Virus record (IMG/VR): IMGVR_UViG_3300035501_001058
DNA length: 64,000 bases
Source of the DNA: an uncultured virus (IMG/VR IMGVR_UViG_3300035501_001058)
Taxonomy: Duplodnaviria; Heunggongvirae; Uroviricota; Caudoviricetes
Strand: one strand, 5' to 3'
This document shows positions 14,243-61,662 of this stretch, piece after piece. The translations under genes were made by a program, and so were the position numbers. A model generated the notes under the pieces. It saw only the letters and a program-made list of their open reading frames with translations, was not told where the DNA came from and made no database searches. Position 1 is the stretch's first letter. Each line of letters starts with the position of its first letter.

Positions 14243-14557
14243 ATGAATGATAAAACCGCATTACAACGTAGATTATTAGTAGATTTACGTTCCAAATTAG
14301 TAGGAGCGAATCATACTTTGCCATTTACGATTTACAATGATGATACTATAGAAGAACTTTTAAAAGCGCAACCAACTAGCATGGAAGAATTAACACAGGT
14401 AAAAGGTTTTCCAGCAGAGGGAAAACGGGTAAAAGGTTTTGGTGAGTCAATTGTACGTATTTTTACAGAAACAGAGAAGATAATTTCAATGAAGGTAGAT
14501 ACTACAGAATCAGAACTGATAGTAGGTGTGGAACTTAAACCAATGAGTATTTTTTAG
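14243..14557 (+). CDS. Stand-alone HRDC-domain protein
   Basis: PFTIYNDDTIEELLKAQPTSMEELTQVKGF...KGFGESIV matches the HRDC pattern. Confidence 0.75.
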   Translation: MNDKTALQRRLLVDLRSKLVGANHTLPFTIYNDDTIEELLKAQPTSMEELTQVKGFPAEGKRVKGFGESIVRIFTETEKIISMKVDTTESELIVGVELKPMSIF

Positions 14558-14570
14558 GATAAGGTGAATT

Positions 14571-15101
14571 ATGGCAAATTTAAATAGAGGACGTCTGGAA
14601 GAACTTGGCGCCGTATTTGAGTTAGAAATAATGGATTATTTAGCAGAAAAATTCCCCAATAGTATCATTATGCATAATCTGGAAGTATTTTGTAAACCTT
14701 TGGAAAAAGATACACAGATAGATATAATAATGCTTACTGATAAAAATGTATATTTGATTGAAGCAAAAAATTGGACAGGTTATATTGAAGGCGAATACAA
14801 TAATGAGCATTGGACAGGTATAAGCAGAGCAAGAGTTAAGATGGAGGTATTTAATCCAATAAATCAAAACGATTTACATATTAGAGCTTTACGAAATGCT
14901 CTAAGAAATGAAGGGTTAAATCCTCCATATTTTAATAATTTTGTTGTTGTGCCTGATGGAACTGCTATAAAGTCTACTTGCAGAGAAGTTGTAAATAAAA
15001 GCTTTTTAATAAATAGGATAACAAGAGCTGAAAAAACACTAAGTAATAATTATGATAAACAATCTTTAGCAGAAAAAATAAGAAAGGTGTGTACAAAATG
15101 A
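14571..15101 (+). CDS. NERD (nuclease-related domain) protein
   Basis: G..FE, TQIDIIML, LIEAKNWTG and NPINQN..H motifs. Confidence 0.85.
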   Translation: MANLNRGRLEELGAVFELEIMDYLAEKFPNSIIMHNLEVFCKPLEKDTQIDIIMLTDKNVYLIEAKNWTGYIEGEYNNEHWTGISRARVKMEVFNPINQNDLHIRALRNALRNEGLNPPYFNNFVVVPDGTAIKSTCREVVNKSFLINRITRAEKTLSNNYDKQSLAEKIRKVCTK

Positions 15102-15844
15102 AACATTGTTTTACATGTGGTGGACAGGGTTTTATTGATAAAGAATGCCCGGAGTGTGGTAGGGAACCTCGTAACAAATCACTCAACTTAGATAAAATGG
15201 AAAATGTACAGGAATTTGTAAAAAAGATAAATAACACCATGATACCTAGTAAGTATCATGGTGTATTTTGGAGCAAAGATATACTTGAGAGGGAGTATTC
15301 TAGTAAATTATCTAAATACAATGATACAGGTTTTGATGATCAATTGTTTATTGGATATGTTGCACAGTTAGATAAAATTAATACTATTTACTCAGAGAAT
15401 AGATTACCCCACAAAAGCGCTATAATAATTGCTCCAGCTGGTTATAGTAAAATAACTTTTGCTTACTCTTGTATGCAAAGAGCCTTGAATGCTGGGTACA
15501 GTGTTGCACCATTACTTGATACAAGTGAAGTAAAGAGAGCATTAATTTTATCATCAGAAAATGTAAGATATAAGATTAATGGTTATTTAAGTTATGAGGA
15601 TTATATAATGTCAGATGTTATGTTTGTAACTGTTACAAAGTTATATACATACGGAGAGGCATATCAGGTTATTCAAGAATTGATTGATAGAAGGTCAAGA
15701 AAGGGACTATCTACTTTCATTCTATCAAGATTTAGCTTGAATGAGTTGTCTCAAACTGACAGAAGTCATAGTTTTGAAGCTATAAAGAAGGTAAGCTACG
15801 ATGCTTTTAAGTATCCTGCCATAATACAATATAAGGAGAGGTGA
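15098..15844 (+). CDS. DnaC/IstB-like helicase-loader homologue with N-terminal Zn knuckle and degenerate Walker A
   Basis: CxxC..CxxC N-terminus; APAGYSKITF; QELIDRRSRKGLSTFILS resembles the DnaC/IstB Arg-finger segment. Confidence 0.55.
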   Translation: MKHCFTCGGQGFIDKECPECGREPRNKSLNLDKMENVQEFVKKINNTMIPSKYHGVFWSKDILEREYSSKLSKYNDTGFDDQLFIGYVAQLDKINTIYSENRLPHKSAIIIAPAGYSKITFAYSCMQRALNAGYSVAPLLDTSEVKRALILSSENVRYKINGYLSYEDYIMSDVMFVTVTKLYTYGEAYQVIQELIDRRSRKGLSTFILSRFSLNELSQTDRSHSFEAIKKVSYDAFKYPAIIQYKER

Positions 15845-15849
15845 CTATA

Positions 15850-16932: not shown

Positions 16933-17880
16933 ATGAGATACACAGAAAAAGAATATAACTATGAATATGATAATATGAAAGATTGGCTGCAGAATTCTGC
17001 AGCCTTAATTATTGTTGCACCGCTAAGGTTATTTAATGAAGTTAGTACTAAGTTTATATATTTAGATAGAAGACTTATAAACAAGATATTAAATTTAGCT
17101 TTTGTAATAGATGCAGTTTGTACAGGGTTGTATGCAGGGGTCAATTATTGGCTTGGCTCTTTTGATTTTCTTGTGGGTAAGGTACCACTCATATTGCAAG
17201 TTGTGAGTTTAATTATAATCGCAGTTTTTAACTTGTGGTATAAAATGTATGATTTTGTGATTTACAAGCAATTAGAATACTTACTACCAGCATTATCTAA
17301 TGGCATTAATGAACACTCAGAAAATGACAATATTGAAGATACTAAATCTATGACTGATTTTGATGGGGAAGTTAAAAAACAGGATTATGCTGATTTTGAG
17401 AGTTCAATACTTACTGAACTAAAAGATTTAGAGATACCAGATATTACACCAGCAGATAGTAAAGTAGATATTAGCACTCTAACTTCTGCATTAGCAGATG
17501 ATAACCATATAAATGTAGAAGATGTTTATTTAGATGAGCCTAACAAAGAAACTGTTGCTAAAAGCAATAACACTACTGCAAATATTATAGAGCTTGATGA
17601 TATTAATGATGAATTAATGTCATTATTGAATGAAGACTTATTAGATGATGAAAGTGTTATAGAGTATCAGAATAAGTCTGAATATGAAATAAAAAATCTT
17701 GATCTAGGGGTTGATAATACAAATCTTGAGACAGAAATGGATGATTCTACTGACCCTTCTAAGTATGTTTCTGAAGATGGTTTGTTCAAGTTTCTTAATG
17801 AGATTGGAGCAGAATCAATGGGAGATTTTGATACATTTGATACATTTACCGTACCAGATAATTTCGATTTAGTTAGTTAA
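16933..17880 (+). CDS. Two-TM membrane protein with long acidic tail
   Basis: Two hydrophobic helices; D/E-rich C-terminal half. Confidence 0.7.
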   Translation: MRYTEKEYNYEYDNMKDWLQNSAALIIVAPLRLFNEVSTKFIYLDRRLINKILNLAFVIDAVCTGLYAGVNYWLGSFDFLVGKVPLILQVVSLIIIAVFNLWYKMYDFVIYKQLEYLLPALSNGINEHSENDNIEDTKSMTDFDGEVKKQDYADFESSILTELKDLEIPDITPADSKVDISTLTSALADDNHINVEDVYLDEPNKETVAKSNNTTANIIELDDINDELMSLLNEDLLDDESVIEYQNKSEYEIKNLDLGVDNTNLETEMDDSTDPSKYVSEDGLFKFLNEIGAESMGDFDTFDTFTVPDNFDLVS

Positions 17881-17896: not shown

Positions 17897-18652
17897 ATGA
17901 TAGTAAAGCATGATTTTAGTAATTTAGTAATGACACCTAAGAGAGAAAACTTTTTTGATTTCTTTTTACAGGCGTATGATGCTATAAATAAGTTACAGAG
18001 CACAATAGATGTGATTGATGATTACCATAGTGGCGAATTAGATGAATTAGATGAATTAGATGAACTAGAGAATCAAAACTTAGATAGTGTAGAAGCTATA
18101 GTGCTTTTTTCACGTGGAGGATTTTCTACAAAACCTGCGATGTATATATGTGCTAGAAACGTTGTGGTTCATATAAATGACTATAACACTTTTTTGTCAG
18201 AACATGTGGATTATGGAATGACATTAGAGGATTCTGAGCAAGATTTATTAAGTGCAAAGTGTAAAAAGATAATCTCAGAATTATTATATTTGCTCTGGTA
18301 TGAATTTGATGTAGAAGAGCAACTTAATAGAATTAAGGCTGGAGAGGATTTCATAGATGAAATTGTTAAGATGTATTGTGACTCTTTTTGTATAGAGCAA
18401 AAGGTCATTTTAGAAAACATTGAGACTCTAAGGGACAAGTTTCCTTTCCATTTATCAATTTTTGAGGATTATCCTGAATACGAAAGTCAATTTGAAGCAT
18501 TAATGGGACCTTTATTAGGTGCAGTTGATGAAGCAAAAATTTCTATTGAGTTAGTAAAAAAAGTTATTGATGGAAGATTAACACCTGATGAATTACTTGA
18601 AGAATTAAATGGTCTTGACGCTGATTTTGATGGAATGAATTGCTTCAATTAG
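17897..18652 (+). CDS. Acidic hypothetical protein
   Basis: AGGAGG RBS; contains an ELD tandem repeat; ends GMNCFN. Confidence 0.7.
   Translation: MIVKHDFSNLVMTPKRENFFDFFLQAYDAINKLQSTIDVIDDYHSGELDELDELDELENQNLDSVEAIVLFSRGGFSTKPAMYICARNVVVHINDYNTFLSEHVDYGMTLEDSEQDLLSAKCKKIISELLYLLWYEFDVEEQLNRIKAGEDFIDEIVKMYCDSFCIEQKVILENIETLRDKFPFHLSIFEDYPEYESQFEALMGPLLGAVDEAKISIELVKKVIDGRLTPDELLEELNGLDADFDGMNCFN
18035..18070 (+). repeat. 9-bp in-frame tandem repeat (gaattagat x3 plus one degenerate copy)
   Basis: Read directly; encodes ELDELDELDELE. Confidence 0.9.
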
Positions 18653-19499: not shown

Positions 19500-20808
19500 T
19501 GTGCTAATTGATGAATTATGCAAAAGAACAAGCTACTTAGCTATGAATGATGTACTAGCAGACACCACTTTACATGATTTGCAATGCGTTGATGTTCTTA
19601 AAATGATAGCAAACAAAAAAGCTTTGGTAATTTATGATACAGGTACTGGTAAAACGTTACTTGCAGCTGCAGCTATGAAATTATTAATAAGAGAAGACCC
19701 AAGTAGAATGTTTATTATGTTTGTAAAGAAAGACCAAATAGTGCAAACTCCTAAAAAATTAAAGGAGTTTGCCGGTCTTTCTTGTGTTGTTACTACAGCA
19801 GATACAAAAAAATCAGTTAATAGCTTTTTACAAAAGGATTTAACAGGTTACAACGTAATAATGCTCACACATAATTGTTTAAATAGCTCAGCTGTTCTTG
19901 AAGCTATCTATAATATACGTAAAAAAATTACAGGAGTAATTATTGATGAAGCTCACGAGTACAATAATTTTAATGGTGCTAATTCATCTGGAGTTTTAAA
20001 GGCTATGATTAGCTCATTTGAGTATGTATGGGGGCTTACTGCAACTCCCATAGTTAGTGACTTAATGCAACTTGCAAGAATTACAAGCTTAATTAATAAT
20101 GAAGTATATCCAAATCCCAAAAAGCTTTATAACTCTTTAATAAATGGTAGCTTTAAATTGGAATATGACCCTGGATTCTTTATCAACAGAAAAGCTTCAG
20201 ATTTAGGTAGATACAGCTCACCACGAGGTTTTGTAATTAGTGTTGAACCACACCCTTATCAGTTAAATTGTAATACCGGAGGTGTTGAATTATTTCAAGT
20301 GTGCAAGGGAGAAGGTGCTTATAACCAAGTGAATGCACTAATAGAACTGATAATTCAAAAAAATAAACTTAATGAAAGAGGATTGGTTTACATTAGCCAA
20401 GGTACTGTGCTTGCATGGGTTATAGAGAATTTAAGTAAAAGTAGTGTAAAGTTTACTTGTATTAATGGTAGTACATCTTTAGAGGAGCGTAGTTTAATTG
20501 AAAAGGATTTTGCTGATGGAAAATTTGATGTAATACTTACATCAATAACAACAGCAGTTGACTTAGATTGTGAATATGTAGTTTTTTATGAATTTACCGT
20601 ATTAGTTAATCAGATGATTGGTCGAGCTCATAGAGGACTAAAACCGAAGAACCTAGAAGTGTACTTTATTATAACTAAAGACACAAAAGAAGAAGATTAT
20701 TTTGTAAATAATATTTATGCAAAGTGTCAAATAATAAAGGAGATCCTTGGAAAGGAAAATAAAGCTGTTGGTGAAATTGCCAACCAGCTAGGGGTAGCAG
20801 ATGATTAG
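19483..20808 (+). CDS. Superfamily 2 (DEAH) helicase
   Basis: DTGTGKT, IIDEAH, GLTAT and QMIGRAHR motifs. Confidence 0.9.
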   Translation: MTWRDNVLIDELCKRTSYLAMNDVLADTTLHDLQCVDVLKMIANKKALVIYDTGTGKTLLAAAAMKLLIREDPSRMFIMFVKKDQIVQTPKKLKEFAGLSCVVTTADTKKSVNSFLQKDLTGYNVIMLTHNCLNSSAVLEAIYNIRKKITGVIIDEAHEYNNFNGANSSGVLKAMISSFEYVWGLTATPIVSDLMQLARITSLINNEVYPNPKKLYNSLINGSFKLEYDPGFFINRKASDLGRYSSPRGFVISVEPHPYQLNCNTGGVELFQVCKGEGAYNQVNALIELIIQKNKLNERGLVYISQGTVLAWVIENLSKSSVKFTCINGSTSLEERSLIEKDFADGKFDVILTSITTAVDLDCEYVVFYEFTVLVNQMIGRAHRGLKPKNLEVYFIITKDTKEEDYFVNNIYAKCQIIKEILGKENKAVGEIANQLGVADD

Positions 20809-22414
20809 TGTTAACGTTATAGAAGATGAAGATTTACAAAATGTTTTAAAGAAGTTTTTAAGTAGTCTATTGCCACATAAAAATTTTGATGCATCATTTT
20901 TTAGTAATGTGCTAAAAAGTGTATTTAAATATGTGCACTTAGAAGAGTTATCAATGGAGTATTATATTCTGTTTAAAATTCTAAACGATTTAAACAAGAT
21001 TAGGAGTTTACATGCATCATACATACCAAGTTTGACTAGACCTGTTTTACATGATGTAATTACAAACTCCATAGGAGATGAAATAACAAATCCTCAATTA
21101 GGTGTAAAGTCTTGGTTACTATATGAACATCTTGATAATAACTTAGAGGTAGAAACAATTAGGCAGGAAGCTTGCACAAAAGTATACAGCAGGTGCATGG
21201 AATTGTTTGATGAATGTATGGAGATGGCAGAGCCATCAAGTACAATTCTTAATAATTTACCAGCACTAAAAGCTGCATTTATTTCACATGTATGTAATCA
21301 GTCTTTGAATGCACAGGCAAGAATTATACAAGGTTCATATAGATTAGGAAGAAAAGAATATGCTGGTTACACAGATTGGTTAGATTATACATCTCGTATG
21401 GTTGCTGAGTTAAATGCTAGATTGAATAGTGCAGAAGATGATAATGTTATTGCATTAGATTCATTTGATAAAGCCAGCACATTATTAAAATCTCTAAATG
21501 AGATGTTCGTACCAATAGCAAGTTATGGTATTCCTGAGATAGATGGTGAGGATGCTTACAATGGTACACCAATGATGCGTCATCGTTTTGTAGTAGTAGT
21601 TGGTAATGAAAATATTGGTAAATCGATGTTTGCAAAAGACCAAGCTATAAACTTAATTCTTGCAGGAAATAAGGTTTTATATATGTGTGGTGAAAATGCA
21701 ATTAATAAAATGTATAGTGAGTTATTAGTAAATTATATTTATAAGAAATATCAGTACTTTGTAACTCCAAGTCACATTCAGCACTTGGAAGATTGCCCTG
21801 AGCATATCAGAAAGGTCATTAATTTAGCTGTTGCTGAGTTAATTGATACGGGCTCATTGATTCTTAGGAATAGTTACTCATACGATAATTTATATACAGA
21901 GCTTGTTACTGATTATGATCAGTTTAAGTTTGATGCAGTTATTATTGATCATAGCTTTGCATTAACTGGTGGATATGACGGTGACAATGGTAAGAGGAAT
22001 ATTGATAAGTTAGCTGAAGATATGAGAAATTTCAGAAAGTATTATCCTATATATGCGTTAGTATTGTCGCACCCTTCAACAGCTGCAAAAGACGCAATCT
22101 CTAAGGATAAGACTATAGAATATTCAGCTACTAAAGGAAGTACTAATCTATCTACTGATGCTGATGATGTTTTTGTTTTAAGAGATAACGAGACTTTGCG
22201 TAAGGAAGGCCTAATTGCTGTAGAAAATACAAAACGTAGAGATGCTGACAGAATTAACAATAACATAATTCTACGAAAAATGTTTGAGGTTAGCCATTTC
22301 GAATATGATGAACAATATCAAGCGAAAGCCTCTAGTTTATCTGTAGAAGCTGATGCAGCATTAAAGAGTTTAGAGGAGTTCTACAATGTAGGGTCAGATG
22401 AATTTACTTTATAG
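20801..22414 (+). CDS. DnaB-like (SF4) replicative helicase
   Basis: GNENIGKS, YMCGEN, VIIDH, LSHP, KGSTNLSTDADDVFVL and KRR motifs in SF4 order. Confidence 0.75.
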   Translation: MISVNVIEDEDLQNVLKKFLSSLLPHKNFDASFFSNVLKSVFKYVHLEELSMEYYILFKILNDLNKIRSLHASYIPSLTRPVLHDVITNSIGDEITNPQLGVKSWLLYEHLDNNLEVETIRQEACTKVYSRCMELFDECMEMAEPSSTILNNLPALKAAFISHVCNQSLNAQARIIQGSYRLGRKEYAGYTDWLDYTSRMVAELNARLNSAEDDNVIALDSFDKASTLLKSLNEMFVPIASYGIPEIDGEDAYNGTPMMRHRFVVVVGNENIGKSMFAKDQAINLILAGNKVLYMCGENAINKMYSELLVNYIYKKYQYFVTPSHIQHLEDCPEHIRKVINLAVAELIDTGSLILRNSYSYDNLYTELVTDYDQFKFDAVIIDHSFALTGGYDGDNGKRNIDKLAEDMRNFRKYYPIYALVLSHPSTAAKDAISKDKTIEYSATKGSTNLSTDADDVFVLRDNETLRKEGLIAVENTKRRDADRINNNIILRKMFEVSHFEYDEQYQAKASSLSVEADAALKSLEEFYNVGSDEFTL

Positions 22415-22441: not shown

Positions 22442-22708
22442 ATGGATAATATGCAGTTTTTCGATAATAGGGAAAAGGATGAAGTACAACTTCAATCTTT
22501 ATTAGCTGAATTTAAAGAAGAGTTACAGGATAGAAAGGACATTCTATCCTGTAACAGATACAAATGGATGTCTGGTTTTATAGAAAGTCCATGTAAAGAT
22601 AAAGCTTTAGTTATACACGGATACTTAATGGGAATACATGATAGTGGAGTTAATGTTGGTTCTTTATCTGGTTTAATGTCAAAAATAATTATAAGTTTTG
22701 ATCTTTAG
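22442..22708 (+). CDS. Hypothetical protein
   Basis: GAGG RBS; starts MDNMQFFD. Confidence 0.65.
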   Translation: MDNMQFFDNREKDEVQLQSLLAEFKEELQDRKDILSCNRYKWMSGFIESPCKDKALVIHGYLMGIHDSGVNVGSLSGLMSKIIISFDL

Positions 22709-23579: not shown

Positions 23580-24359
23580 ATGAGCTATGAAAATGTAGTT
23601 AGATGGTGGCAAGATAGGGATATAAAAACTGGGGATGATTTAGAGGTTGCTCTGAACAACTTTAGCATTGTCTTTGCTACAAATTCTAATTGTATAGAAG
23701 GTAACAAATTAAATTATCACACAACAAGGGAAATTTTTGAGGGTAAACCTTTGGTTAATTTTACTGGTGACCTACGGGATATATTTGAGGCTCAAAATCA
23801 AAAGCTTGCTGCTAATTTTATTATTGAGAGTTTTAATAGCAAGCAAGAAATAGATATTGACTTCATTTTAAAATTGCATTCAATTTTGCTATATGGATGC
23901 TATGATAGCATTCGGTGGTCCAAGGGTGAACGACCAGGTACTTTTAAGGTAAATGATTATGAAGTCGGTATTAGTGGAGTAGGTTCATTTCCTGATGAAG
24001 TAGAAGAGGATCTCAAAGAAATATTATATGAACTAGATAATAATAAAGAGTCTGCAGATATTCTTATGAAAGCTACTTATCTACATGCAAATTTTGAGAG
24101 TATACACCCTTTCGCTGATGGTAATGGTAGAGTAGGGAGAACTCTGTTAAATTATTATTTATTACTTAATAATTATCCTCCATTGATAATTTTTTCTGAG
24201 GATAAAGACACATACTACTTAGCATTAGAGGTATTCGACCGTACAGGAGAACTCAAAAATTTTAAATTATTTTTGCAAGAGCAGACATGTAAGACATGGA
24301 AGTTAAAAAAAGATAAATCAAAAGAAATGAGTATTAATAAATATTTAGATTGCTTTTAA
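23580..24359 (+). CDS. Fic-domain protein (AMPylase), class II-like
   Basis: Canonical HPFADGNGRVGR; N-terminal SNCIEGN inhibitory-type motif. Confidence 0.92.
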   Translation: MSYENVVRWWQDRDIKTGDDLEVALNNFSIVFATNSNCIEGNKLNYHTTREIFEGKPLVNFTGDLRDIFEAQNQKLAANFIIESFNSKQEIDIDFILKLHSILLYGCYDSIRWSKGERPGTFKVNDYEVGISGVGSFPDEVEEDLKEILYELDNNKESADILMKATYLHANFESIHPFADGNGRVGRTLLNYYLLLNNYPPLIIFSEDKDTYYLALEVFDRTGELKNFKLFLQEQTCKTWKLKKDKSKEMSINKYLDCF

Positions 24360-48424: not shown

Positions 48425-48697
48425 TTGAAAGCTATGATTTGTCCAATTTGTAGAGCAGAAAATAGTGATGATAGAACATACTGCTATAATTGTGGTTATA
48501 ACAAATTGCAGGAAGAAATAAATAAACAATCAGATAATAAACCAATAGATAATCCGAGTATCAATAAAGACAATTCTTTAATGATTGATCCATCAGATGA
48601 TACATCTATTGGTACTTTAAATTATGTGGCAATCGTAATTATAGGCTTAATAGTCTTGATTGCATTGGTAGTAGTAAAGTGTATAGGGCTTTTTTAA
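48425..48697 (+). CDS. Zinc-ribbon + C-terminal TM protein
   Basis: CPICRAEN...YCYNCG; hydrophobic C-terminal helix. Confidence 0.75.
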   Translation: MKAMICPICRAENSDDRTYCYNCGYNKLQEEINKQSDNKPIDNPSINKDNSLMIDPSDDTSIGTLNYVAIVIIGLIVLIALVVVKCIGLF

Positions 48698-48738
48698 GCC
48701 CTATTTTGTATTTATACAGGTAGGTGATGATTTAGCAA

Positions 48739-53079: not shown

Positions 53080-53523
53080 ATGGAAGAATTACATGTATTT
53101 GATGATTTATACAGTGCTGAGGAACAGCAGGAAATTAAAATAGATGAATCTCTTGCATCTACTTTCTCAGATATAAAGCAAAAATTGATAGAAGGAAAAT
53201 ATAGCTACGCAAAAGATTATTTAAAAAATGCAACCTCTGTAGAAGAAATTGTCATTACAGCTGCAGCATACAGAATTGGGGAAGAATATGCTGCAGCACT
53301 ACAAGACGATTTAGACATTGAGGAAAAGAAAGTTGCGTTATTTGGTTTTAAAAATGAATTAAACGTCATTGAGCAAATAAAAGGTGGCGAAGCATTACCT
53401 GATTTAGTTACTTTAATAGAAGCTTCAAAAATTCCAGGATTTGAGTTGATGAGTTTTTTCGATGAAACGGGTTCTTATATCAATTATCCAAAGATTAGAA
53501 AATTCATACAAGAAAATTCATAA
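53080..53523 (+). CDS. Hypothetical protein
   Basis: AAGGAG RBS; starts MEELHVFDD. Confidence 0.7.
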   Translation: MEELHVFDDLYSAEEQQEIKIDESLASTFSDIKQKLIEGKYSYAKDYLKNATSVEEIVITAAAYRIGEEYAAALQDDLDIEEKKVALFGFKNELNVIEQIKGGEALPDLVTLIEASKIPGFELMSFFDETGSYINYPKIRKFIQENS

Positions 53524-53585
53524 TAAAGAGGAAATTAAAAATAAAAATGTACATAAATGTCTTAAAACACAGGAGGTTTATGTAC

Positions 53586-54227
53586 ATGACAAATGAGGAA
53601 ATTCAATTAATTAAAGAAATTAAACAGGGTAACTTAGAAGCAAGCTATGATTTATTAACAGTAAATCATAGCTTTTTGGTTAATTTGTATCGAAAATTGC
53701 ATGTATACGGATACTATTATGAAGAATTTGAAATGATTTGTTATGAGGCTTTAATTAAAGCAGCAAATCATGCTGACCTGACAAAAGGTTATTGTTTTAA
53801 TGCTTACTGGAAAAAATATATTTTACATGAATATCTTTTAGAGAAGATACAGCTACAATATGCATTTTCCTTAACTACTGCAGAATACAGTACAGCAAAA
53901 AGAGATAATGTTGATTTAATTAATAACTATTACAGAAGATCTACCAGTAAACAGGAAGGTCTTATTATTAATGATGTATATGAGTGTGTATTTCAGGCAG
54001 AGTTGCGTAAATTGGTATGGATAGAAGTAAGTAAAACGGTCACTAATGAAAATGCTTATATTTTATGGGAGCTATTTAGTAAAAATAGAACTTTAACCTC
54101 ATTAGCACAAGAGTTACATATTGGCACTGATAGGGTTAGAATGCGTAAGATTAGGAGTTTAAAAAAGTTAAAAGAGAATAAAAAATTAAGAGAGTTAGCA
54201 TATGACTATTATGGAATATTATGCTGA
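53586..54227 (+). CDS. Sigma-70 family alternative RNA polymerase sigma factor
   Basis: MTNEE..LIKEIKQGNLEA, region-2-like ALIKAA...F.AY..KYI, region-4 HTH TLTSLAQELHIGTDRVRMRKIRSLKKL. Confidence 0.8.
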   Translation: MTNEEIQLIKEIKQGNLEASYDLLTVNHSFLVNLYRKLHVYGYYYEEFEMICYEALIKAANHADLTKGYCFNAYWKKYILHEYLLEKIQLQYAFSLTTAEYSTAKRDNVDLINNYYRRSTSKQEGLIINDVYECVFQAELRKLVWIEVSKTVTNENAYILWELFSKNRTLTSLAQELHIGTDRVRMRKIRSLKKLKENKKLRELAYDYYGILC

Positions 54228-54245
54228 CTAAAGGAGGTATAAGAT

Positions 54246-54716
54246 TTGATAGCAAATGACGTAATGCAATATTTTTTGGAACAATGTTCTTCAATATCTA
54301 GAAATTATTATAGAGATTTGGGGAAAATCAATTCATCAACGGATGAAGATATTGACAGAATATTGCAACTGCAAAGTTATTATGGCACACAGCTTGAAGC
54401 TGTGGCTAATATAATCTTAGAGGAAAACATGACAGAAGAATACTTGAAGAAAGGTAATATTATTGAGATGTCTAATGGTAATGTAGAATACATAGATGAA
54501 AGTATGAAGACCTATGTAATGAATAATACGGAAATCTTAAAACGAAAAGGTTTAATAGATGTGTGCGATATCAATACTGAGTGCTTAGTTTGTGGACGCA
54601 GAATACTTGGTATCGGTTTACAAGATGACTCTGATGCAGGATATGCTATTTGCTTCTCTTGTATAACAGAGGAAAATTATGTTGGTGGTGGTTGTAATTT
54701 TAAAGTATTTAAGTAA
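54246..54716 (+). CDS. Hypothetical protein with C-terminal CxxC..CxxC
   Basis: AGGAGG RBS; CLVCG and CFSC. Confidence 0.65.
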   Translation: MIANDVMQYFLEQCSSISRNYYRDLGKINSSTDEDIDRILQLQSYYGTQLEAVANIILEENMTEEYLKKGNIIEMSNGNVEYIDESMKTYVMNNTEILKRKGLIDVCDINTECLVCGRRILGIGLQDDSDAGYAICFSCITEENYVGGGCNFKVFK

Positions 54717-54915
54717 ATTTATAATAATTATAGGTATAACTGCGTGCTTAACCGGATGCAGAGAAATTAATTATTTTGAAGATACAACAGAGACTACCAC
54801 TGTTGTAGATGATGAAGTAACTAGTGAGGAGAAATCAACTGTTCATGTCGATATTTTTCCTCAAAGTGTTTATGACTATGATGTAAAGGATACTATTTTG
54901 GTTCCTAAAGAGTAA
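54679..54915 (+). CDS. Small putative lipoprotein
   Basis: Hydrophobic stretch + LTG-C lipobox; start uncertain. Confidence 0.55.
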   Translation: MLVVVVILKYLSKFIIIIGITACLTGCREINYFEDTTETTTVVDDEVTSEEKSTVHVDIFPQSVYDYDVKDTILVPKE

Positions 54916-54927
54916 AGGAGTGAGTAA

Positions 54928-56922
54928 ATGGGTGAATTAAAAGAGATGAATCTTTTCTCTTCTAATGCAGACGCTAAACCATCTTTTGATGAAGCATATG
55001 AACAATTTTGTCGAGAGCTGGGGTTGGATTACAGATATAATAAATTAAGATGTAAGGCTTTTGATAAATACCTACTAGAATTATTTAGCCAAGGAAATTT
55101 ATTACATAATCCGGATTTAGATAAATTGGTTAAGGAATCATTTTCTTCATATCAAGAAGAATTTGATGTTAAGTATAGCAACTGCTGGGCAATTGCTAAA
55201 TGTTTAGAAGCTGGTGCAGATTTGCATAAAATTATGACTAGTGGTAGCTTGCGTGCAGAAGCAGTTATAGAGGCAATTAGTCTTGATAGTACAGTTGATA
55301 TCAATTTAGCAATTGATATACAGAAAGTTCTCAACATAAATAATGAATTTGAGAAAATCGTGAAAATGATAACAGGAAATAGTTATCGAAAGAAAAATTC
55401 ATATGGATACACATTACTAACAGTGTACAATCTTATAAAAAGTTATCCAGAGGTGCAAGCTCATTTAGACTCGTGGAGTGATAATTATTGTCTTGTGATT
55501 ATAGGAAATTATTTACAAGAAGGTATAGCATACTACGAAGCAATTCAACGTGTTGATAGATACAAAGGTAAAAAATATTCTTGGCAACTAGCTAAATTAA
55601 TGGATATAAAATTCCCAAATGATAATGTATTACCTAAAAACACAGATTTATTTGAGATAGTAGCGCAAAATGAAATAAAATACTGTAATAGTTTACAGGA
55701 ATTAGAGGCTAGATTTACTAGCTTACAAGAATTGTTACATAAAGATAATGCTACAATTACAGCCAAAGATATTAGTGATGTTGCTTCTGTATACGAGACA
55801 GGTTTTTCCATTGGTAAATTAATGGAGATGTATCCTGAGATAAGAGAATCTATTGCTATACAAAAGTTTATTTCATTGTGCAAATTAGCACGTTCAATTA
55901 TTGACAGAAATTCTATAAGTAGTTCTATGCATAGAAGAGACACTACAGGACTGTATAGTGAATATGTTTTTGGTGGAGAAATAGTAAAGGTATATAAACC
56001 GGAACTGCTTTTCGATCTATTCAGGCATGTTATTGATAACCTTTCTACTGAAGCTATAGGAAATTTTAGTAAAGTAGATTATGTTTCTTATTATGTAGAA
56101 AATTGGATAAATGGTATTTCTGGAACAGTGATGTGCTTACAAGATAAAAGTGAAGTAAAAGCTATACTATCTAGAAATTTTTCAGAAGTACAAATAGCAT
56201 ACAATGGAAGAATTATGAATCATTTTCCAGCAGATTTCTTTATTGAATACGGTGAAGAAGTTATCTTTTGGGTAAAGAAGAATAGACCTAAGTATTTCAT
56301 AATTAAGCATGAATTTGTAACACAAAAATCTGATATTGATAAAACTGCTGATAATCTAGTCATAGATTTTAGCGATAATAATGATTTAGGATACGTGTTA
56401 CATGAATGCTGTTTAGGTTTATCTGTAGACTTTGCTACTAAAAAGAGAACTGTTCTTGAAAGTGGATATAGATTGGGTACTCCGTACTATAAAATATTGT
56501 TAAAGAACTATTTTAAGGAGCATGGACAAGATTACAATGAGATAGAAACTTTTGATGTTCAGACTGTTGTTGGTATGATACAAGCTTTAATTTTACAAAA
56601 GTCTAGTGAATACGAAGAGCTATTTAAGAAACATGATGTTTTTGTTGCAGTGATGCGTGGTCTTAAATGGTGTATTAGAAATGATGATAATTTATACAGT
56701 GCAGTAGTGCGATATGCTCTATTAGCTGCAGGTATCAATAGTAGATACACACGATGTAGGATTAGCCCTACTTTAAGCAGTACATTAGTTATTGATGATA
56801 AACAATATCCTATTTTGCAGTGTTTGACTAACAATAATAAGATAATTGAGTTTTTAAAAACAAACAGAGATTTTCTACAAATAGAATTGATAGGGGATCA
56901 AATACATGTTAAGGGTGCATAG
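54928..56922 (+). CDS. Large hypothetical protein
   Basis: 664-aa ORF; AAGGAG RBS; starts MGELKEMNLF. Confidence 0.7.
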   Translation: MGELKEMNLFSSNADAKPSFDEAYEQFCRELGLDYRYNKLRCKAFDKYLLELFSQGNLLHNPDLDKLVKESFSSYQEEFDVKYSNCWAIAKCLEAGADLHKIMTSGSLRAEAVIEAISLDSTVDINLAIDIQKVLNINNEFEKIVKMITGNSYRKKNSYGYTLLTVYNLIKSYPEVQAHLDSWSDNYCLVIIGNYLQEGIAYYEAIQRVDRYKGKKYSWQLAKLMDIKFPNDNVLPKNTDLFEIVAQNEIKYCNSLQELEARFTSLQELLHKDNATITAKDISDVASVYETGFSIGKLMEMYPEIRESIAIQKFISLCKLARSIIDRNSISSSMHRRDTTGLYSEYVFGGEIVKVYKPELLFDLFRHVIDNLSTEAIGNFSKVDYVSYYVENWINGISGTVMCLQDKSEVKAILSRNFSEVQIAYNGRIMNHFPADFFIEYGEEVIFWVKKNRPKYFIIKHEFVTQKSDIDKTADNLVIDFSDNNDLGYVLHECCLGLSVDFATKKRTVLESGYRLGTPYYKILLKNYFKEHGQDYNEIETFDVQTVVGMIQALILQKSSEYEELFKKHDVFVAVMRGLKWCIRNDDNLYSAVVRYALLAAGINSRYTRCRISPTLSSTLVIDDKQYPILQCLTNNNKIIEFLKTNRDFLQIELIGDQIHVKGA

Positions 56923-58114
56923 ATTTGCTCTCGCTATAGCTCTGTGCAGTTTATTAACTGGCTGTACTAAGCAAACTGAGCCGGTAGATGTTGCAACAAA
57001 TACAACAGAAGTTGTTGCAACATCAGGTGATGCAACAACCGAGCAAGGTGTTCATTATGATATTTTTGAAAATAATCCTGTTGTGTTTGATTCTAATGTA
57101 CAAATTCCTATTATGAAAGATTCCCAGATATCAGGTTGGTTAAACATAAATTATGTAGAAAAACTTGGTATTTGGGATATCAATAATAAATCTGCAACAG
57201 ATAATGGTGTAAAATTCAGTTATGCTATAAATTACTCTATTGATTTAACAGAATATCTGGAAGCAAATGAATTAATAGAAGTTAAAGTGACTCCTAAATT
57301 ATACGATAATGCAAATAATTTAGTTGGCTCTGTCGGATACGTAGGTTGGTCTGGCTTCACTGATACAGTTAGTTTATACAAGAGTAAAGCCTCTGGTTAT
57401 GCTGAAGTAGTTTTACAACCATACGATAAAGACATAAATAATTATAAATCATTAGTATTAGAAATAGCTGATCTAAATGGTGAAGTACAATTTGATGATG
57501 TATACATAGATGTAGGTTGTCTGTTAAATGCAAAAGATGGTCCAAGCATAATGACATTAGACGATACAGCAACTATAGAAAGTATTAATGGTGCTATTTA
57601 TACTATTAGTTTTCGTGATGTTTATTATGAACTAAATGATGTAAGCAACACTAAATTAGGTGATGATAAAATGGATTATTTTTATGACTTTACTTGTATA
57701 GTATCATATAAGCAACAGCCAACTAATGATATAGAGGTTACTACTTTTGACTCTTTTAATAATTTTGCAATGATAAAAATGCCATTAATTGAAGTCTTTA
57801 GTGATACAGATAGCACTAAGCTTTATAATGTGGTTGAAGGTGTAAAGCGCTATGTATACAGTGATAGCAACGATTTAGAAGAATACTTAACTGAGTTTCC
57901 TAGTGCTCTTGATGTAGGATACAGGGCCATAGTTAGTCAAAATAGAATTGTTCCAGAAACGACTGTTGAAGAGCCTACTTATATAAGGATAGTTCTACAA
58001 TTTCCCGAAGAAATAAAATCAAGAAGCTACTCAGAAATATCAGAATTTTCTGGTCGATATCTCGTTTGGCAATTGCCTTTATCTACACGAAGTCTGGAGG
58101 CGAAACCAAAATGA
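56906..58114 (+). CDS. Putative lipoprotein, beta-rich
   Basis: LTG-C lipobox; Thr-rich linker. Confidence 0.75.
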   Translation: MLRVHRFALAIALCSLLTGCTKQTEPVDVATNTTEVVATSGDATTEQGVHYDIFENNPVVFDSNVQIPIMKDSQISGWLNINYVEKLGIWDINNKSATDNGVKFSYAINYSIDLTEYLEANELIEVKVTPKLYDNANNLVGSVGYVGWSGFTDTVSLYKSKASGYAEVVLQPYDKDINNYKSLVLEIADLNGEVQFDDVYIDVGCLLNAKDGPSIMTLDDTATIESINGAIYTISFRDVYYELNDVSNTKLGDDKMDYFYDFTCIVSYKQQPTNDIEVTTFDSFNNFAMIKMPLIEVFSDTDSTKLYNVVEGVKRYVYSDSNDLEEYLTEFPSALDVGYRAIVSQNRIVPETTVEEPTYIRIVLQFPEEIKSRSYSEISEFSGRYLVWQLPLSTRSLEAKPK

Positions 58115-59112
58115 AAAAGATAATATTGATAGCTATACTGATACTGTGTACTGCATGTAGCTCTAATAACTTTAGTTATGATAATTCATTGAAAGCACTT
58201 GTTGAAGAATATAACAAAGACGGCACCGTAGCAACCGACGAATTAGAAACTTTGATGCTAGATAAATCTAGCAGTTATAAAAAATTAATAAGGTCATTAA
58301 AGCAAAGTGCACAGATAGTTGATTATGCATCAGATGGTACTTCTATCAAATGTCAAGTAAGTTTTATTGGATATGAAAATGCCTGTAATTTGATGGCAAG
58401 TGATAAGTCTGGATTTGTGCACGATATTAGAAATTTAAAAAGTCTTGATATGTCAATGGAAGACTTACAAGAATATGCTTATGATTATTTATACCTACTT
58501 ATTGATAAATGTAACACTGCTACATATGAAGTTACATTAAGCCTGACTCAGTGTACTAATGCTCCATTCGAGTTTAGTTCTAATAAGCCAATTATTGAAA
58601 TTATTGAGACAGAAGTAGATAAAATAGTATACGATAGTATACAAATGGCATTAGAGGTTTCTGATGATGAAGAGACTTCTAATAATAAAATTGAATATCG
58701 AAAGATGGAAGTTGGTAAATCTTACTTGCTTAATTATGCAGTAGATGATAAAACCACTGTACCAGTTATACTTACTATTAAGTCTTTACAGACTGGTGAA
58801 GATGCAGTAAATGCAATAAATGATTTAAGTATAACTAATAGTTCTCTGATTAGTAGTAATGTCTGCTATCTTGAATATGAAGTCTATAATTGTAGCAATC
58901 AAGATATTATTTTTAGCGATAAATTTTATGATGCAGATATTTCACTATGTAATTTATTTATAGACGATACAAAATATGTTGGATTAAATAAGACTTGTAA
59001 TATTAATGCTGGCTCAACCACTATGATAAATAGTATATCCAAGATGAATCACGATGGTTTAGTATGGTATGATAGTCAAGCTTCTGAGTTGTACCTTCTA
59101 AACTATAAATAA
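58111..59112 (+). CDS. Putative lipoprotein
   Basis: GGAGG RBS; MKKIILIAILILCTA-C. Confidence 0.75.
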   Translation: MKKIILIAILILCTACSSNNFSYDNSLKALVEEYNKDGTVATDELETLMLDKSSSYKKLIRSLKQSAQIVDYASDGTSIKCQVSFIGYENACNLMASDKSGFVHDIRNLKSLDMSMEDLQEYAYDYLYLLIDKCNTATYEVTLSLTQCTNAPFEFSSNKPIIEIIETEVDKIVYDSIQMALEVSDDEETSNNKIEYRKMEVGKSYLLNYAVDDKTTVPVILTIKSLQTGEDAVNAINDLSITNSSLISSNVCYLEYEVYNCSNQDIIFSDKFYDADISLCNLFIDDTKYVGLNKTCNINAGSTTMINSISKMNHDGLVWYDSQASELYLLNYK

Positions 59113-59128
59113 ATTCTAGGAGGTACTT

Positions 59129-59920
59129 ATGAGTACAATATTAATTTTTATAGATGCAGAGAATATGTCAAAATCGCAGGCATTGAAAGCATATGAGGAA
59201 GCTAAGAGAATGTCTTCACCAGAAGATATTATACTTGGTAAATTTTATGGTGTTAAAGAGAATCTTGGTGACCTTGTACAATTTTATTTATCTTTGGGTT
59301 TTGAATTTGTTGACACTAGTATTTATGCAGAACAGAAAAAGAATTTAACGGATATGAAGATAATCACAGATACAGTTTTTGATATAGTCAACGTATTTCC
59401 AAATGAGTTAAAAGCTGTTTTTATCTTGAGTAATGATTGCGACTTTAATCCGTTAATTTGCAAATTGAAAGCATACAACACACAGGTAATTGGTGCTTCT
59501 TCTTTTTTATTTGGGTCTATAGACTCAGTAGATGCATTAGCAAGTTATTTAAAGATTCAAAGATTTACACCTGCATCAGTACATACTATTAATAATGTAC
59601 TATATGATAGTATAGTTGATTTAACAAGAGATATGTTATTAGATGATACGTTAATTATTAAATTTTTGCGTACAAGAATAAATAAGTTAGCAAGTGCAAC
59701 TTTAGCTAAATACAGATATGCTATGAGAGAATTGTCTGATGATGAAATTAGACAATTCTCTTTTGCTTCATACAACAACTTACTAGAACAAGCAGGATAC
59801 TGTAACGTGGAAGAAAATTTAAAGTTATTTACTAACAAGATGTTTGGTTCAACTTTAGATAAAAACGGAGTTGCACAAGTAGTAATGAAGATTAGAGGTG
59901 ATAATAATGCAATTAACTGA
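59129..59920 (+). CDS. NYN (LabA/PIN-like) domain nuclease
   Basis: IFIDAEN, KNLTDMKIITD and LSNDCDFNPL motifs. Confidence 0.85.
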   Translation: MSTILIFIDAENMSKSQALKAYEEAKRMSSPEDIILGKFYGVKENLGDLVQFYLSLGFEFVDTSIYAEQKKNLTDMKIITDTVFDIVNVFPNELKAVFILSNDCDFNPLICKLKAYNTQVIGASSFLFGSIDSVDALASYLKIQRFTPASVHTINNVLYDSIVDLTRDMLLDDTLIIKFLRTRINKLASATLAKYRYAMRELSDDEIRQFSFASYNNLLEQAGYCNVEENLKLFTNKMFGSTLDKNGVAQVVMKIRGDNNAIN

Positions 59921-60917
59921 TGCTAATTTTTTAGGAGATATTAAATCTGATAAAGAAACGCCTAAGGAAGAGAAAGTATTATCACAGGCGGATACTAATT
60001 TTTTGGAAGAGTTTGATACTGTATCTATTGTAACCGTTGATAAAGATGATACAACAGTAAAATCAGATACTGCTGTAATTAATAAAAATTCTGAGGATAA
60101 GATAGAAGAGCAAGAGCTAGAAAAAAAGTTAATTGAGCAACCTCTAGAAGAATTGGAATTTGATGCTGATGCTATCGAGAAAAAGAAAGAAACATCAGAA
60201 ACATCACAGCAAGTAAACAGTACAGCAGATGAATCTACACAACTTAGTGAATTAAGTACATATGAAAAGTTGTGCTCAACTGCAGCAATACTTGATGATA
60301 AAGCTGAAGATGCTTTTTCGAGAGTGAAACAGAAAGCGAGTATTCTTGCTAACAGCGCTTTAGCAGTTTTTAATAATAATAAAAATCTTAAAGTGTTTGA
60401 AAACGGTAAATTAGTCATTTGTGGAGATTTTGAATTTTTGCTACATAAAGATGAATTAATGTTATTGAAATACACCGGCATGAGTTCTAGAGTTATTTGT
60501 CCGGATGAAGTTGGTGGAAAACCTGTGAGATATATACATTCTAATGCTTTTAAAATTGGTCATTTTAATGGTACTAATAAAATTAAAGCAGTGTTTAGGG
60601 TACTCAAGAATGAAGATATACTATTACATGATGTAGATAGTTTGAAATATGCTGCTATGCAAATAACATACTTGCAATTGCCAGTTGGTTTACAGTTTAT
60701 ACCAAATGATTTATTTAGATTTTGTCCAGGACTATACTCTATAGAGATACCACAAAGTGTAGTTAGTATAGCCCCGGCAGCGTTTAATAATAGCAAACTT
60801 AATACAATTTTCTTTAGTAATAATTGTGTTAAAAATATGAAGTTTGTTAAATTTCAAGAAAATACCAGGTTATTTGTAAAGAAAAATGTCGTTCGTTCTT
60901 ACAGGGTGGTGAGCTAA
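59907..60917 (+). CDS. Acidic N-terminal region + TpLRR (LRR_5)-type leucine-rich repeats
   Basis: LPVGLQFIPNDLFRFCPGLYSIEIPQSVVSIAPAAFNNSKL. Confidence 0.75.
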   Translation: MQLTDANFLGDIKSDKETPKEEKVLSQADTNFLEEFDTVSIVTVDKDDTTVKSDTAVINKNSEDKIEEQELEKKLIEQPLEELEFDADAIEKKKETSETSQQVNSTADESTQLSELSTYEKLCSTAAILDDKAEDAFSRVKQKASILANSALAVFNNNKNLKVFENGKLVICGDFEFLLHKDELMLLKYTGMSSRVICPDEVGGKPVRYIHSNAFKIGHFNGTNKIKAVFRVLKNEDILLHDVDSLKYAAMQITYLQLPVGLQFIPNDLFRFCPGLYSIEIPQSVVSIAPAAFNNSKLNTIFFSNNCVKNMKFVKFQENTRLFVKKNVVRSYRVVS

Positions 60918-61270
60918 TGAGTGAAAAACTTGTAAAGGTACTTTGGAAAGTAGACATAGTAATAGTACTAGTTAAATTTGTTTTGGCTTGGATCAGTACA
61001 TTAGGAGATATTACTTTTAGTAAGATATGGAATAAGAAACTCAGTGTTCTCTTTGATGTGCAATCTATCAAGACTATAATGTTTCAACGCAATCTAACTT
61101 TTTGGATAATACTTGCTTTAGTCAATGTTCTAATAATCGGTATGTGGTTATTATCTTCTAATGGTAAAAAGCAAAAAGAAGACACTGCAGAAACAAAAGT
61201 AATTATTGTGCCACAAAACAATGATAGTACTGTAAAACAGCATGAAGAAACAGAAATGAAAGTATTCTAG
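60917..61270 (+). CDS. Two-TM membrane protein
   Basis: Two hydrophobic helices; tail ends TEMKVF. Confidence 0.7.
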   Translation: MSEKLVKVLWKVDIVIVLVKFVLAWISTLGDITFSKIWNKKLSVLFDVQSIKTIMFQRNLTFWIILALVNVLIIGMWLLSSNGKKQKEDTAETKVIIVPQNNDSTVKQHEETEMKVF

Positions 61271-61281
61271 GGGGAATAGAA

Positions 61282-61662
61282 ATGAATAAAGTACAATCGC
61301 TCTTTTTACTTATAATTATTGATGCAATAGTACTAGTGTACTGTTTCAAAGCAACTATAACCTTATTGATTTTACCAGACAAGTTAGTTACGTGGTTATT
61401 CGATAAAGTCTTTAAAACCTTAGATATGGGTAGTACCACAATGGTTGTAGCTGCAGCAGAAGCAGCGTCCCATAAGACTAGTTTGATAGTTTTATTAATA
61501 GTAAATATTCTAGTAATAGTTTTTAAATTATTAGCCTCAAAAGGCAGAAAAAGATCCAAATCAAATGGCACTAAGCAGTTATTAACTACTGTAAATAATG
61601 CACAGACTACTTCTGTTGAGCCGGATTTAGCAGAACGAAATAAAGATCTTAATGTTTTTTAA
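61282..61662 (+). CDS. Two-TM membrane protein
   Basis: Two hydrophobic helices; tail ends KDLNVF. Confidence 0.7.
   Translation: MNKVQSLFLLIIIDAIVLVYCFKATITLLILPDKLVTWLFDKVFKTLDMGSTTMVVAAAEAASHKTSLIVLLIVNILVIVFKLLASKGRKRSKSNGTKQLLTTVNNAQTTSVEPDLAERNKDLNVF

Follow-up and report, generated by a model that had tools for sequence, protein, structure and literature searches.

Terminal docking and addressing motifs are a known kind of protein signal. In phage T4, the tails of gp43, gp33 and gp55 carry a hydrophobic, acidic C-terminal motif behind a divergent, unstructured linker of variable length, and the motif is described as interchangeable and as tolerated internally (PMC2988020). The motif that binds the beta clamp has a critical Gln at position 1 and a critical Leu at position 4, with binding depending most on positions 1, 4 and 5 (PMC11952451), and an FtsK-like ATPase is reported to bind the C-terminal LxxxMxF of EsxB (PMC6954902). 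Conjugative systems for type IV secretion (T4SSs) have been described as carrying plasmid proteins into recipients (PMC8406263), and phage and plasmid proteins have been proposed to be injected alongside DNA (PMC5512222). Here, we describe a peptide tag, [ML]-x-x-F, at the ends of mostly unrelated proteins encoded in a 64-kb stretch of DNA (the window; 64,000 nucleotides of the IMG/VR virus record IMGVR_UViG_3300035501_001058), which we take to belong to a large and very divergent conjugative element from gut Lachnospiraceae. The tag is enriched at protein termini, is under purifying selection in several unrelated families, is exchangeable between N- and C-termini, has been transplanted from one protein to another, unrelated one and is flexible. 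New here are the large and diverse set of tagged proteins and the use of the tag at both ends; no description of it, nor of a defined translocation signal for Gram-positive conjugation, was found in the full-text literature searched.

The window has a G+C content of 30%, with all long open reading frames (ORFs) on the + strand, to which all coordinates below refer, and we curated 72 complete + strand genes, picking starts by Shine-Dalgarno spacing. A preliminary description of this sequence had rested on 20 [ML]xxF peptides, ten N-terminal and ten C-terminal, every one of which is found where it had been placed. Each of the ten N-terminal ATG codons follows a Shine-Dalgarno match of 4–7 bases, 5–9 nt upstream (6 or 7 bases for nine of the ten starts, 4 bases for 22442), on which grounds mis-called starts were rejected as an explanation. 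An eleventh C-terminal case was found in the product of 41329–41556, which ends in ..TLIIFEK. The Phe of an [ML]xxF lies within the last three residues in 11 of the 72 proteins, against 1.55 expected from the internal rate of 126 motifs in 17,593 positions (binomial p = 4e-7), and [ML]xxF starts at residue 4 in seven of the 72, against ~0.5 expected. To avoid a post-hoc choice of motif, we scored all 400 residue pairs a..b in a blind scan, which placed L..F (7 versus 1.22) and M..F (4 versus 0.33) as the top two of 400 at C-termini and ranked M..F first at N-termini (8 versus 0.77, p = 1e-6).

When the terminal 12 residues were shuffled 5000 times, C-termini averaged 1.44 motifs with a maximum of 7, where 11 are observed, and N-termini averaged 2.7 with a maximum of 10, where 11 are likewise observed. 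With both counts above every shuffle, the proposed enrichment over a composition-matched background was borne out. The reversed motif F..[ML] was not enriched (one at C-termini, five at N-termini), and neither [ML]xxY nor [ML]xxW showed terminal enrichment. Three C-terminal tags and three at residue 4 were counted in 337 ORFs from four Clostridia-class genomes, which served as a stand-in and are not the host; the shuffles and this control together led us to reject an artefact of composition. Four of the 11 N-terminal matches (16767, 28440, 45429 and 54246) fall outside the cases first noticed and look like chance: in 16767, 28440 and 54246 the motif does not start at residue 4, that of 16767 lying within a transmembrane segment, and in 45429 it starts at residue 4 but has no polar residue before it.

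In total, 17 of the 72 curated proteins are tagged, to which an internal start at 31932, two gene remnants and a 699-amino-acid (aa) protein can be added. By region, tags are carried by 0 of 7 proteins in 306–14134, a T4SS-like block, by 13 of 47 in 14243–48112 and by 4 of 18 in 48434–63442. Untagged proteins comprise, besides those of the seven block genes, the lipobox proteins, both helicases, a RuvC-like protein, the nucleases (including one with a NERD domain) and the sigma factor, so the T4SS block and the lipoproteins indeed lack the tag, as had been noted before. Five of the N-terminal cases had been thought to share DNA ancestry, and this is confirmed at the DNA level, leaving six independent N-terminal events. 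DNA similarity among the C-terminal cases is not above a shuffled null and their Leu and Phe codons differ, which rules out a nucleotide-level border signal. Pure paralogy was also rejected, since the C-terminal cases share no DNA and a cassette encoding the tag is found on an unrelated protein.

Loss of the tag from orthologues on related elements had been set beforehand as a refutation test, and the tag is instead kept in four families, namely the Hsp70-family protein, the CHC2 zinc-finger protein and two core proteins of 251 aa and 190 aa. In Hsp70 (41570–43342), the Phe of the tag (F7) proved invariant in 36 and then in 88 aligned orthologues of 37–69% identity, on par with nucleotide-binding residues. 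Out of 96 distinct Hsp70 N-terminal leaders, 92 contain [MLIV]xxF, the remaining four being one fragment, one short leader and two with Ala at −3 (counting the Phe as position 0), and the distance from the Phe to the GIDLGT of the nucleotide-binding domain (NBD) ranges from 8 to 34 residues. In a control of generic DnaK proteins, with the most generous start allowed, the motif was present in 5 of 78 genome loci and 2 of 75 viral-contig loci, with a median leader of five residues. More distant Hsp70 clusters (P0315–P0375) have a variant leader, K-S-N-x-F-[TG], with Ser at −3, which may be a second dialect of the tag; leaders in clusters farther away are short and untagged.

All 12 CHC2 orthologues (52–64% identity) end in F or FD, with the C-terminal F invariant, and keep the terminal [ML]xxF despite linker insertions of 8–14 residues. 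Five syntenic metagenome loci encode orthologues (31–64% identity) of the 251-aa and 190-aa proteins in which the tag is kept, and non-orthologous neighbours in syntenic loci are tagged too: at L161, 5 of 25 C-termini carry it versus 0.29 expected, and at L166, 4 of 27 versus 0.41. Hsp70 is a core gene in eight of nine related loci, the ninth (L162) having only a 65-aa end fragment. A position-specific scoring matrix (PSSM) trained solely on the Hsp70 leaders of other elements was then scanned over the other 71 window proteins with their 875 Phe; the nine highest-scoring matches were all terminal, and 8 of the 52 terminal Phe but none of the 823 internal ones reached a score of at least 13.

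Together, these sequences define a full motif of the form phi(−6)-[EK]-x-[ML](−3)-polar-[small or hydrophobic]-F(0), after which G, D, N, E or the C-terminus usually comes. Its position profile was taken from the 92 Hsp70 leaders, in which F stands at 0 in 92 of 92 by design of the search. Position −6 is M in 58, L in 12, V in 10, T in 5 and S in 4 leaders; −5 is E or K; −4 is K in 45, D in 9, N in 7, E in 7, T in 6 and Q in 3; and −3 is M in 71, L in 11, I in 7 and V in 3. At −2 stand polar residues (N, K, D, T, Q, S), at −1 varied ones (A 19, V 16, L 15, F 9, C 9, S 7, I 6 and M 5 of 92), and at +1 mostly G (45), D (15) or A (14), with F in two. Roughly three quarters of the longer leaders have L, V, I or M at −6, and the placement of [ML] at residue 4 is explained by the initiator Met, which supplies position −6 when the Phe is residue 7. 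The same −6/−3/0 pattern recurs in most C-terminal window cases and in the tails of Fic proteins, and the Phe is the very last residue in six window cases.

The fifteen residues adjacent to the tag are more polar than in untagged proteins (0.67 versus 0.57 and 0.72 versus 0.54; p = 0.002 at both ends), which upholds the earlier remark that the tag sits on non-homologous proteins at the end of polar linkers. AlphaFold2 modelled the Hsp70 with a mean predicted local distance difference test score (pLDDT) of 90.8; in this model residues 1–10 average a pLDDT of 54 and have no secondary structure, indicating that the tag is a free end and not part of the fold. Docking of the tag onto its own Hsp70 was considered and rejected, as the model shows none, which is weak evidence. 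Judging from sequence, the tag can also lie inside disordered stretches near a terminus, as in the 699-aa core protein at 50980–53079, where a tag-like HERMVVFDD (F29) lies in an acidic N-terminal stretch, and in its L166 orthologue (22% identity), where LTKLNAFGD (F67) lies in an acidic run.

The tag also behaves as a portable unit. Among 120 Fic homologues, 54 have a tag tail, 8 others a tail whose F is replaced, 23 lack a tail and 35 are extended in some other way; the tag tail is laid out as a conserved KTW, a basic linker and then L-[SN]-[MA]-F-L, with −1 being M in 14, A in 12 and S in 4 of 39 tails. The preliminary description had asked whether chromosomal homologues lack the tag; ordinary DnaK proteins mostly do, as do many Fic proteins, but with 54 of 120 carrying the tail this part of the expectation held only partly. 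At the N-terminus, a 109-nt cassette comprising an inverted-repeat hairpin, a ribosome-binding site (RBS) and the first ~13 codons with the tag occurs at 33965–34073 and at 36077–36185 with 90% identity, its two copies preceding a DUF285 gene and an unrelated 778-aa P-loop protein; a third copy of the hairpin and RBS lies at 32838–32932. Between them, the gene at 35088–36080 encodes a NADAR domain fused to a DUF285/LRR body. An 86-nt segment that follows the tag and linker in the paralogues recurs inside this gene (35614–35699), which indicates that the NADAR domain stands in the tag's place.

Tagged C-termini are found on proteins of very different kinds. An HRDC-domain protein of 104 aa (14243–14557; Pfam) ends in ..LKPMSIF with a PSSM score of 13.3, and the 251-aa core protein, of no known family (17897–18652), ends in ..FDGMNCFN, its L166 orthologue (31% identity) in ..LDKMTDFS. 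In the Fic-domain protein (23580–24359), ..NKYLDCF closes an add-on tail past the conserved KTW end of the domain, and the 190-aa core protein (25357–25929) ends in ..MQELTFFNN, with ..RELTTFSN and ..RELRSFTN in orthologues. Three small proteins follow, of 82 aa (27858–28106; ..MSNMNCFE, also found with the PSSM), 61 aa (28669–28854; ..IHELQAF) and 175 aa (30934–31461; ..LKELQSF, PSSM score 10.4). The CHC2 zinc-finger (primase-type) protein (43329–44033) ends in ..LESLMAFD, the invariant Phe of its 12 orthologues being F233. Finally, two proteins with two transmembrane segments each, of 117 aa (60917–61270; ..ETEMKVF) and 126 aa (61282–61662; ..NKDLNVF), have a basic stretch after the second segment, by which their tails should be cytoplasmic. 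The presence of the tag on these two membrane anchors makes it a docking motif and not purely an export label.

At N-termini, the 88-aa protein at 22442–22708 starts with MDNMQFFD (PSSM score 14.0), and a series of DUF285/LRR genes follows further downstream. In the first of them (31554–32849), MKDMNLFDD stands at an internal in-frame ATG at 31932 (residues 127–135) with its own RBS and has the top PSSM score of 18.2; the second (32913–33968; Pfam) starts with MKDMNLFN and is related to the others at the DNA level. The paralogue at 34034–34614 starts with MKSMDFFD but is frameshifted after ~20–30 codons, so that tag and linker (MKSMDFFDNEKSS..) and the LRR body (ORF 34132–34614) are in different frames, and a 16-codon stump at 34633–34683 (MKAMNLFV) is the remnant of a further DUF285 paralogue, again by DNA kinship. 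The 778-aa P-loop protein (36146–38482), without a family match, owes its MKSMDFFG to the cassette described above. A 75-aa protein (41329–41556) is tagged at both ends, with MNSMTFFD at its start and the ..TLIIFEK already mentioned at its end; the stop codon of its gene lies 13 nt before the Hsp70 start and abuts the Hsp70 RBS. It is not conserved at related loci, which have other small genes there.

The Hsp70 itself (~590 aa) has a 25-residue N-terminal extension beginning MKNMDVFE and a complete NBD and substrate-binding domain (SBD)-beta, with a Pfam HSP70 match at E = 7e-70 and a profile that aligns to DnaK chains over NBD and SBD (E = 2e-108). Further downstream, a 147-aa protein (53080–53523) starts with MEELHVFDD and has a second, internal copy, FELMSFFDE (F127), both seen in the sequence and with the PSSM. 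A 664-aa protein of no known family (54928–56922), for which the ESM Atlas gave nothing usable, starts with MGELKEMNLFS (PSSM score 15.3), in which the motif starts at residue 4 if phi(−6) is L4. Tag-like motifs were also seen in a core membrane protein (16933–17880), whose long acidic tail is probably disordered: TKSMTDFDG (F143) and, near the end, ..ESMGDFDTFDTF...

Families could be named for only a minority of the genes (Pfam, PHROGs, NCBIfam). They include HRDC, NERD, a GreA-like N-domain, an SNF2-type and a DnaB-like helicase, a metallophosphatase, Fic, HEPN, Hsp70, several DUF285/LRR proteins (one fused to NADAR), a CHC2 zinc finger, a RuvC-like protein, DUF488, an S26 signal peptidase, an isochorismatase, a sigma-70-like factor, NYN and a metallo-beta-lactamase fold. 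PHROGs recognised no virion genes in the window, the NCBIfam scan added almost no further assignments, searches of PDB sequences with three large proteins of no family were empty or weak, and neither tRNAs nor Rfam families were matched. The element is read as conjugative because of an untagged 654-aa VirB4/TraC-like ATPase (10051–12015; Walker A AESGWGKT; ESM Atlas features and structure, TM 0.57–0.64), and it is followed by an NlpC/P60 hydrolase (Pfam). Upstream of it lie genes for two proteins (7457–10039) of 435 aa, with a weak ParA/Get3-like P-loop region and a degenerate Walker A (PDB 6bs3_A, E = 0.016), and 423 aa, without a match. The last ORF, cut by the end of the window (63460–63999), weakly matches a pilin-like conjugal transfer protein family of a Mycoplasma integrative and conjugative element (E = 0.004), and further T4SS genes may lie beyond the window end.

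Members of the Hsp70 clusters, which alone amount to hundreds of sequences, go in their sources under the names Coprococcus eutactus CAG:665, Coprococcus sp. and Lachnospiraceae bacterium and lie on contigs of up to 1.1 Mb, and the same CHC2 protein is also found on a 191-kb contig, so that the element extends beyond the window. No close relatives of the Hsp70, of the VirB4-like protein, of the DnaB-like helicase or of a tailed Fic came up in the plasmid and phage collections searched, and viral-contig scans with CHC2, DnaB-like and Fic alignments gave nothing close. Single-protein scans for relatives returned nothing, and those with Hsp70 alignments returned generic DnaK loci only, which were reused as the control above. 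None of 399 sampled Clostridia-class genomes had the Hsp70 at E ≤ 1e-90, which shows little given this strict cut-off and the three candidates scored per genome. The 'Hodor' megaplasmids were rejected as being the same element on account of their G+C content of 44–47%, as against 30% here, and are an analogous class (PMC12934698).

Several other genes of the window deserve mention. HD-type (MOBH-related) relaxases have been reported on gut megaplasmids (PMC12934698), and an HD-domain protein of the window (29842–30906) ends in ..WCDVPF. The DnaB-like helicase (20801–22414) shares 60–73% identity with its relatives and has an N-terminal half of ~250 residues without family assignment; its C-terminus is acidic, aromatic and conserved (..SDEFTL, ..NDLYSL and ..QDDYTL, in the window and L161, L163, L164, L166 and L168). 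A 248-aa protein (15098–15844) without a family match combines an N-terminal zinc ribbon of CxxCxGxG type (CFTCGGQG..CPECG) with a degenerate P-loop-like stretch, features by which it may be helicase-loader-like or co-chaperone-like.

Very probably, one common receptor with a hydrophobic pocket reads the tag. An untagged 537-aa core protein (48739–50352), whose poor model (pLDDT 61) has an SH3-like barrel at ~158–232, is a weak candidate reader; the middling SH3-like match (3e19_A, Z 6.8, root-mean-square deviation 2.4 over 62 residues) is a lead and not a finding, and Foldseek gave no match to the model at E ≤ 0.001. Where this receptor sits is a more tentative matter, and our leading proposal, held with less than even confidence, is that the tag docks to the receptor through which the element's conjugative transfer machinery takes up substrates. 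It would lie in or at this machinery, its likeliest candidate being a substrate receptor of FtsK/VirD4 type encoded beyond the window. Soluble cargo, including the primase-type zinc-finger protein, the HRDC, Fic and LRR proteins and many small proteins, would be brought to the channel and at least partly delivered with the DNA into the recipient, and the tagged Hsp70 and the anchors with two transmembrane segments would dock as helpers at the same multivalent receptor. Consistent with such a role, the element encodes a T4SS, with its VirB4/TraC-like ATPase, NlpC/P60 hydrolase and weak pilin-like match; the structural parts of this system and the exported lipoproteins are untagged; and DUF285/LRR proteins are tagged at the place where one might look for a signal peptide. 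Other T4SSs are, moreover, known to carry primase-type and Fic proteins as passengers. The precedents are those with which we began, an FtsK-like ATPase that binds a C-terminal motif (PMC6954902), plasmid proteins that move through conjugative T4SSs (PMC8406263) and proteins proposed to enter alongside DNA (PMC5512222). It is a more doubtful step to see in the tag the first defined substrate signal of a Gram-positive conjugation machine, usable at either end, by which about a quarter of the proteome would be loaded onto a coupling ATPase for injection before gene expression, with the Hsp70 and the anchors unfolding or holding the cargo, as an unfused counterpart of polyvalent proteins.

Several observations weigh against placing the receptor at the transfer machinery. 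The T4SS signals cited in PMC8406263 are C-terminal or internal, whereas six of the tags here are independently N-terminal, and we found no precedent for N-terminal signals. Not every tagged protein can be cargo, because two are membrane anchors and a 590-aa Hsp70 would be an odd passenger. Four tagged core proteins are encoded in a replication-type block with the SNF2 and DnaB-like helicases and the RuvC-like protein, a setting that would suit a replisome hub equally, and scans with Pfam, PHROGs and NCBIfam picked out neither a coupling protein nor a relaxase in the 64 kb.

A hub of the clamp type, which we consider rather unlikely, would have the tag plug a hydrophobic pocket of the host beta clamp, or of a clamp encoded elsewhere on the element, and thereby tether replication, recombination and regulatory proteins to DNA. 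Such a hub would account for the resemblance of [ML]-polar-hydrophobic-F to the last four residues of QL[S/D]LF (PMC11952451), and T4 offers the precedent of one motif on polymerase, sigma-like factor and co-activator (PMC2988020). The motif occurs at either terminus and in disordered stretches, the CHC2 and HRDC proteins are DNA proteins, and the four tagged core genes flank helicases; the −6/−3/0 spacing is also that of the PIP (PCNA-interacting protein) box. However, −4 is mostly Lys (K in 45 and Q in 3 of 92 leaders) and no more than 15 of 92 have L at −1, Pfam, PHROGs and NCBIfam matched nothing in the window to a clamp family, and the tagged proteins make a poor fit to a clamp, with the helicases, the RuvC-like protein and the NERD nuclease untagged and Fic, LRR, Hsp70 and two-transmembrane proteins tagged. 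Alternatively, and in our estimate unlikely, the Hsp70 of the element would itself read the tag through its SBD, the tagged proteins being dedicated clients or adaptors, with clients, for example, kept unfolded for transfer or the chaperone brought to its targets and to the membrane. The Hsp70 is, after all, a core gene in eight of nine related loci, has a complete NBD and SBD-beta and is the one general module for peptide binding that could be recognised in the window; some specialised Hsp70s read a single short motif, as HscA does with LPPVK, and a cytoplasmic tag on membrane anchors would make sense if a chaperone were recruited to a channel. Yet the Hsp70 bears the most conserved copy of the tag, and is thus a tagged protein like the others, with no cis docking in its AlphaFold2 model; the −6/−3/0 hydrophobics with a Gly cap suggest a short helix, where an Hsp70 binds its peptides as an extended strand, DnaK disfavours acidic flanks, and Pfam found no J-domain protein in the window.

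That the tag is a degron, marking proteins of the element for a Clp- or Lon-type protease or adaptor of the host and keeping early proteins short-lived, appears very unlikely to us. Use of either free terminus, exposure on a flexible linker and the existence of proteases that read N- and C-terminal motifs would be in keeping with it, as would the many small accessory proteins and the Fic-type enzyme, whose level may need limiting, but it is hard to rationalise why a degron should be invariant on a core chaperone and on core replication-block proteins over 37–69% identity, and Pfam showed no linked protease or adaptor gene in the window except the S26 signal peptidase, an enzyme with an extracytoplasmic site. 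We give almost no credence to a tag without function, arising from composition, paralogy, a DNA-level border signal or mis-called starts. The genome, at 30% G+C, is rich in F, N, K and M codons, five of the N-terminal cases are paralogous and four of the 11 N-terminal matches look like chance; against this, shuffles never reach the observed counts, the control stands at 3 of 337, the C-terminal cases have no DNA similarity and varied codons, each quoted first ATG has its Shine-Dalgarno match, and conservation is at the protein level, with variable x positions and start distance.

If one receptor reads the tag, a simple sequence rule would predict which proteins act together in a widespread family of gut Lachnospiraceae elements, most of those proteins being without family assignment. 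If that receptor is the transfer machine, as we tentatively favour, the tag would be the first portable delivery signal for Gram-positive conjugation, an aid to finding anti-defence cargo and a possible handle for protein delivery between gut bacteria; should it be a clamp or the Hsp70, a hub logic new to mobile elements would come to light.

In its logic, the tag is best matched by the T4 tails, for which gp45 is the reader. Those tails are C-terminal only and found on three proteins, whereas the tag occupies either terminus of what about one gene in four encodes, among these products a chaperone and Fic, LRR and membrane proteins, and T4 has the gp45 clamp, whereas no clamp is recognised in the window. 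The PIP box of PCNA partners, Qxx[LIM]xx[FY][FY], is typically found at the extreme termini of unrelated DNA enzymes. The tag shares its [LIM] at position 4 and aromatic at position 7 (−3 and 0), but has a hydrophobic residue at −6 in place of the Gln at position 1, and G, D, A or the chain end at +1 in place of the second aromatic at position 8; to our knowledge, bacteria have no PCNA. The beta-clamp motif QL[S/D]LF or QxxLF resembles the tag in its last four positions (hydrophobic, polar, hydrophobic, Phe) and in being used at either terminus or internally. Its Phe at position 5 corresponds to the F7 that is invariant in 88 aligned Hsp70s, but its Gln at position 1, equivalent to −4, is found in 3 of 92 leaders and 0 of 20 window peptides, and at position 4, equivalent to −1, leaders and Fic tails have varied residues in place of Leu or Met. 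The preliminary description had likened the tag to the clamp motif without its Gln; the likeness of the last four residues stands, but it is a surface match only, the tag conserving −6, −3 and 0 and the clamp motif depending on positions 1, 4 and 5 (PMC11952451).

A parallel in form is offered by the type VII secretion substrate EsxB, whose LxxxMxF is likewise a seven-residue tail of Leu, Met and Phe and inserts into a pocket of ATPase3, an ATPase of FtsK/SpoIIIE type, of EccC (PMC6954902). EsxB differs in having its Met at −2, at the C-terminus only and on WXG100 helical hairpins, whereas the tag has Met or Leu at −3 and six independent N-terminal cases; WXG100 and EccC/EssC had no family match in the window (Pfam, NCBIfam). 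FtsK/SpoIIIE-type ATPases are the superfamily to which T4SS coupling proteins belong. Known co-transferred proteins of T4SSs include the Sog and TraC primases and the Fic-BID toxin VbhT. Substrates of conjugative-plasmid T4SSs, such as the pED208 proteins, are like the tagged proteins in being soluble and encoded by the element, and they are recognised by the coupling protein and move to the recipient (PMC8406263). The signals cited in that source are charged C-terminal tails or folded internal domains (TSA and TSB of TraI), none of them a seven-residue or N-terminal peptide. Lastly, polyvalent proteins bring together comparable activities (among them primase, SNF2-type helicases, nucleases and enzymes that modify the host) and have been proposed to enter with the DNA (PMC5512222). 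In polyvalent proteins the domains are fused in one giant polypeptide, whereas here they are separate proteins with a common tag, and the shared tag could be an unfused way to the same co-delivery.

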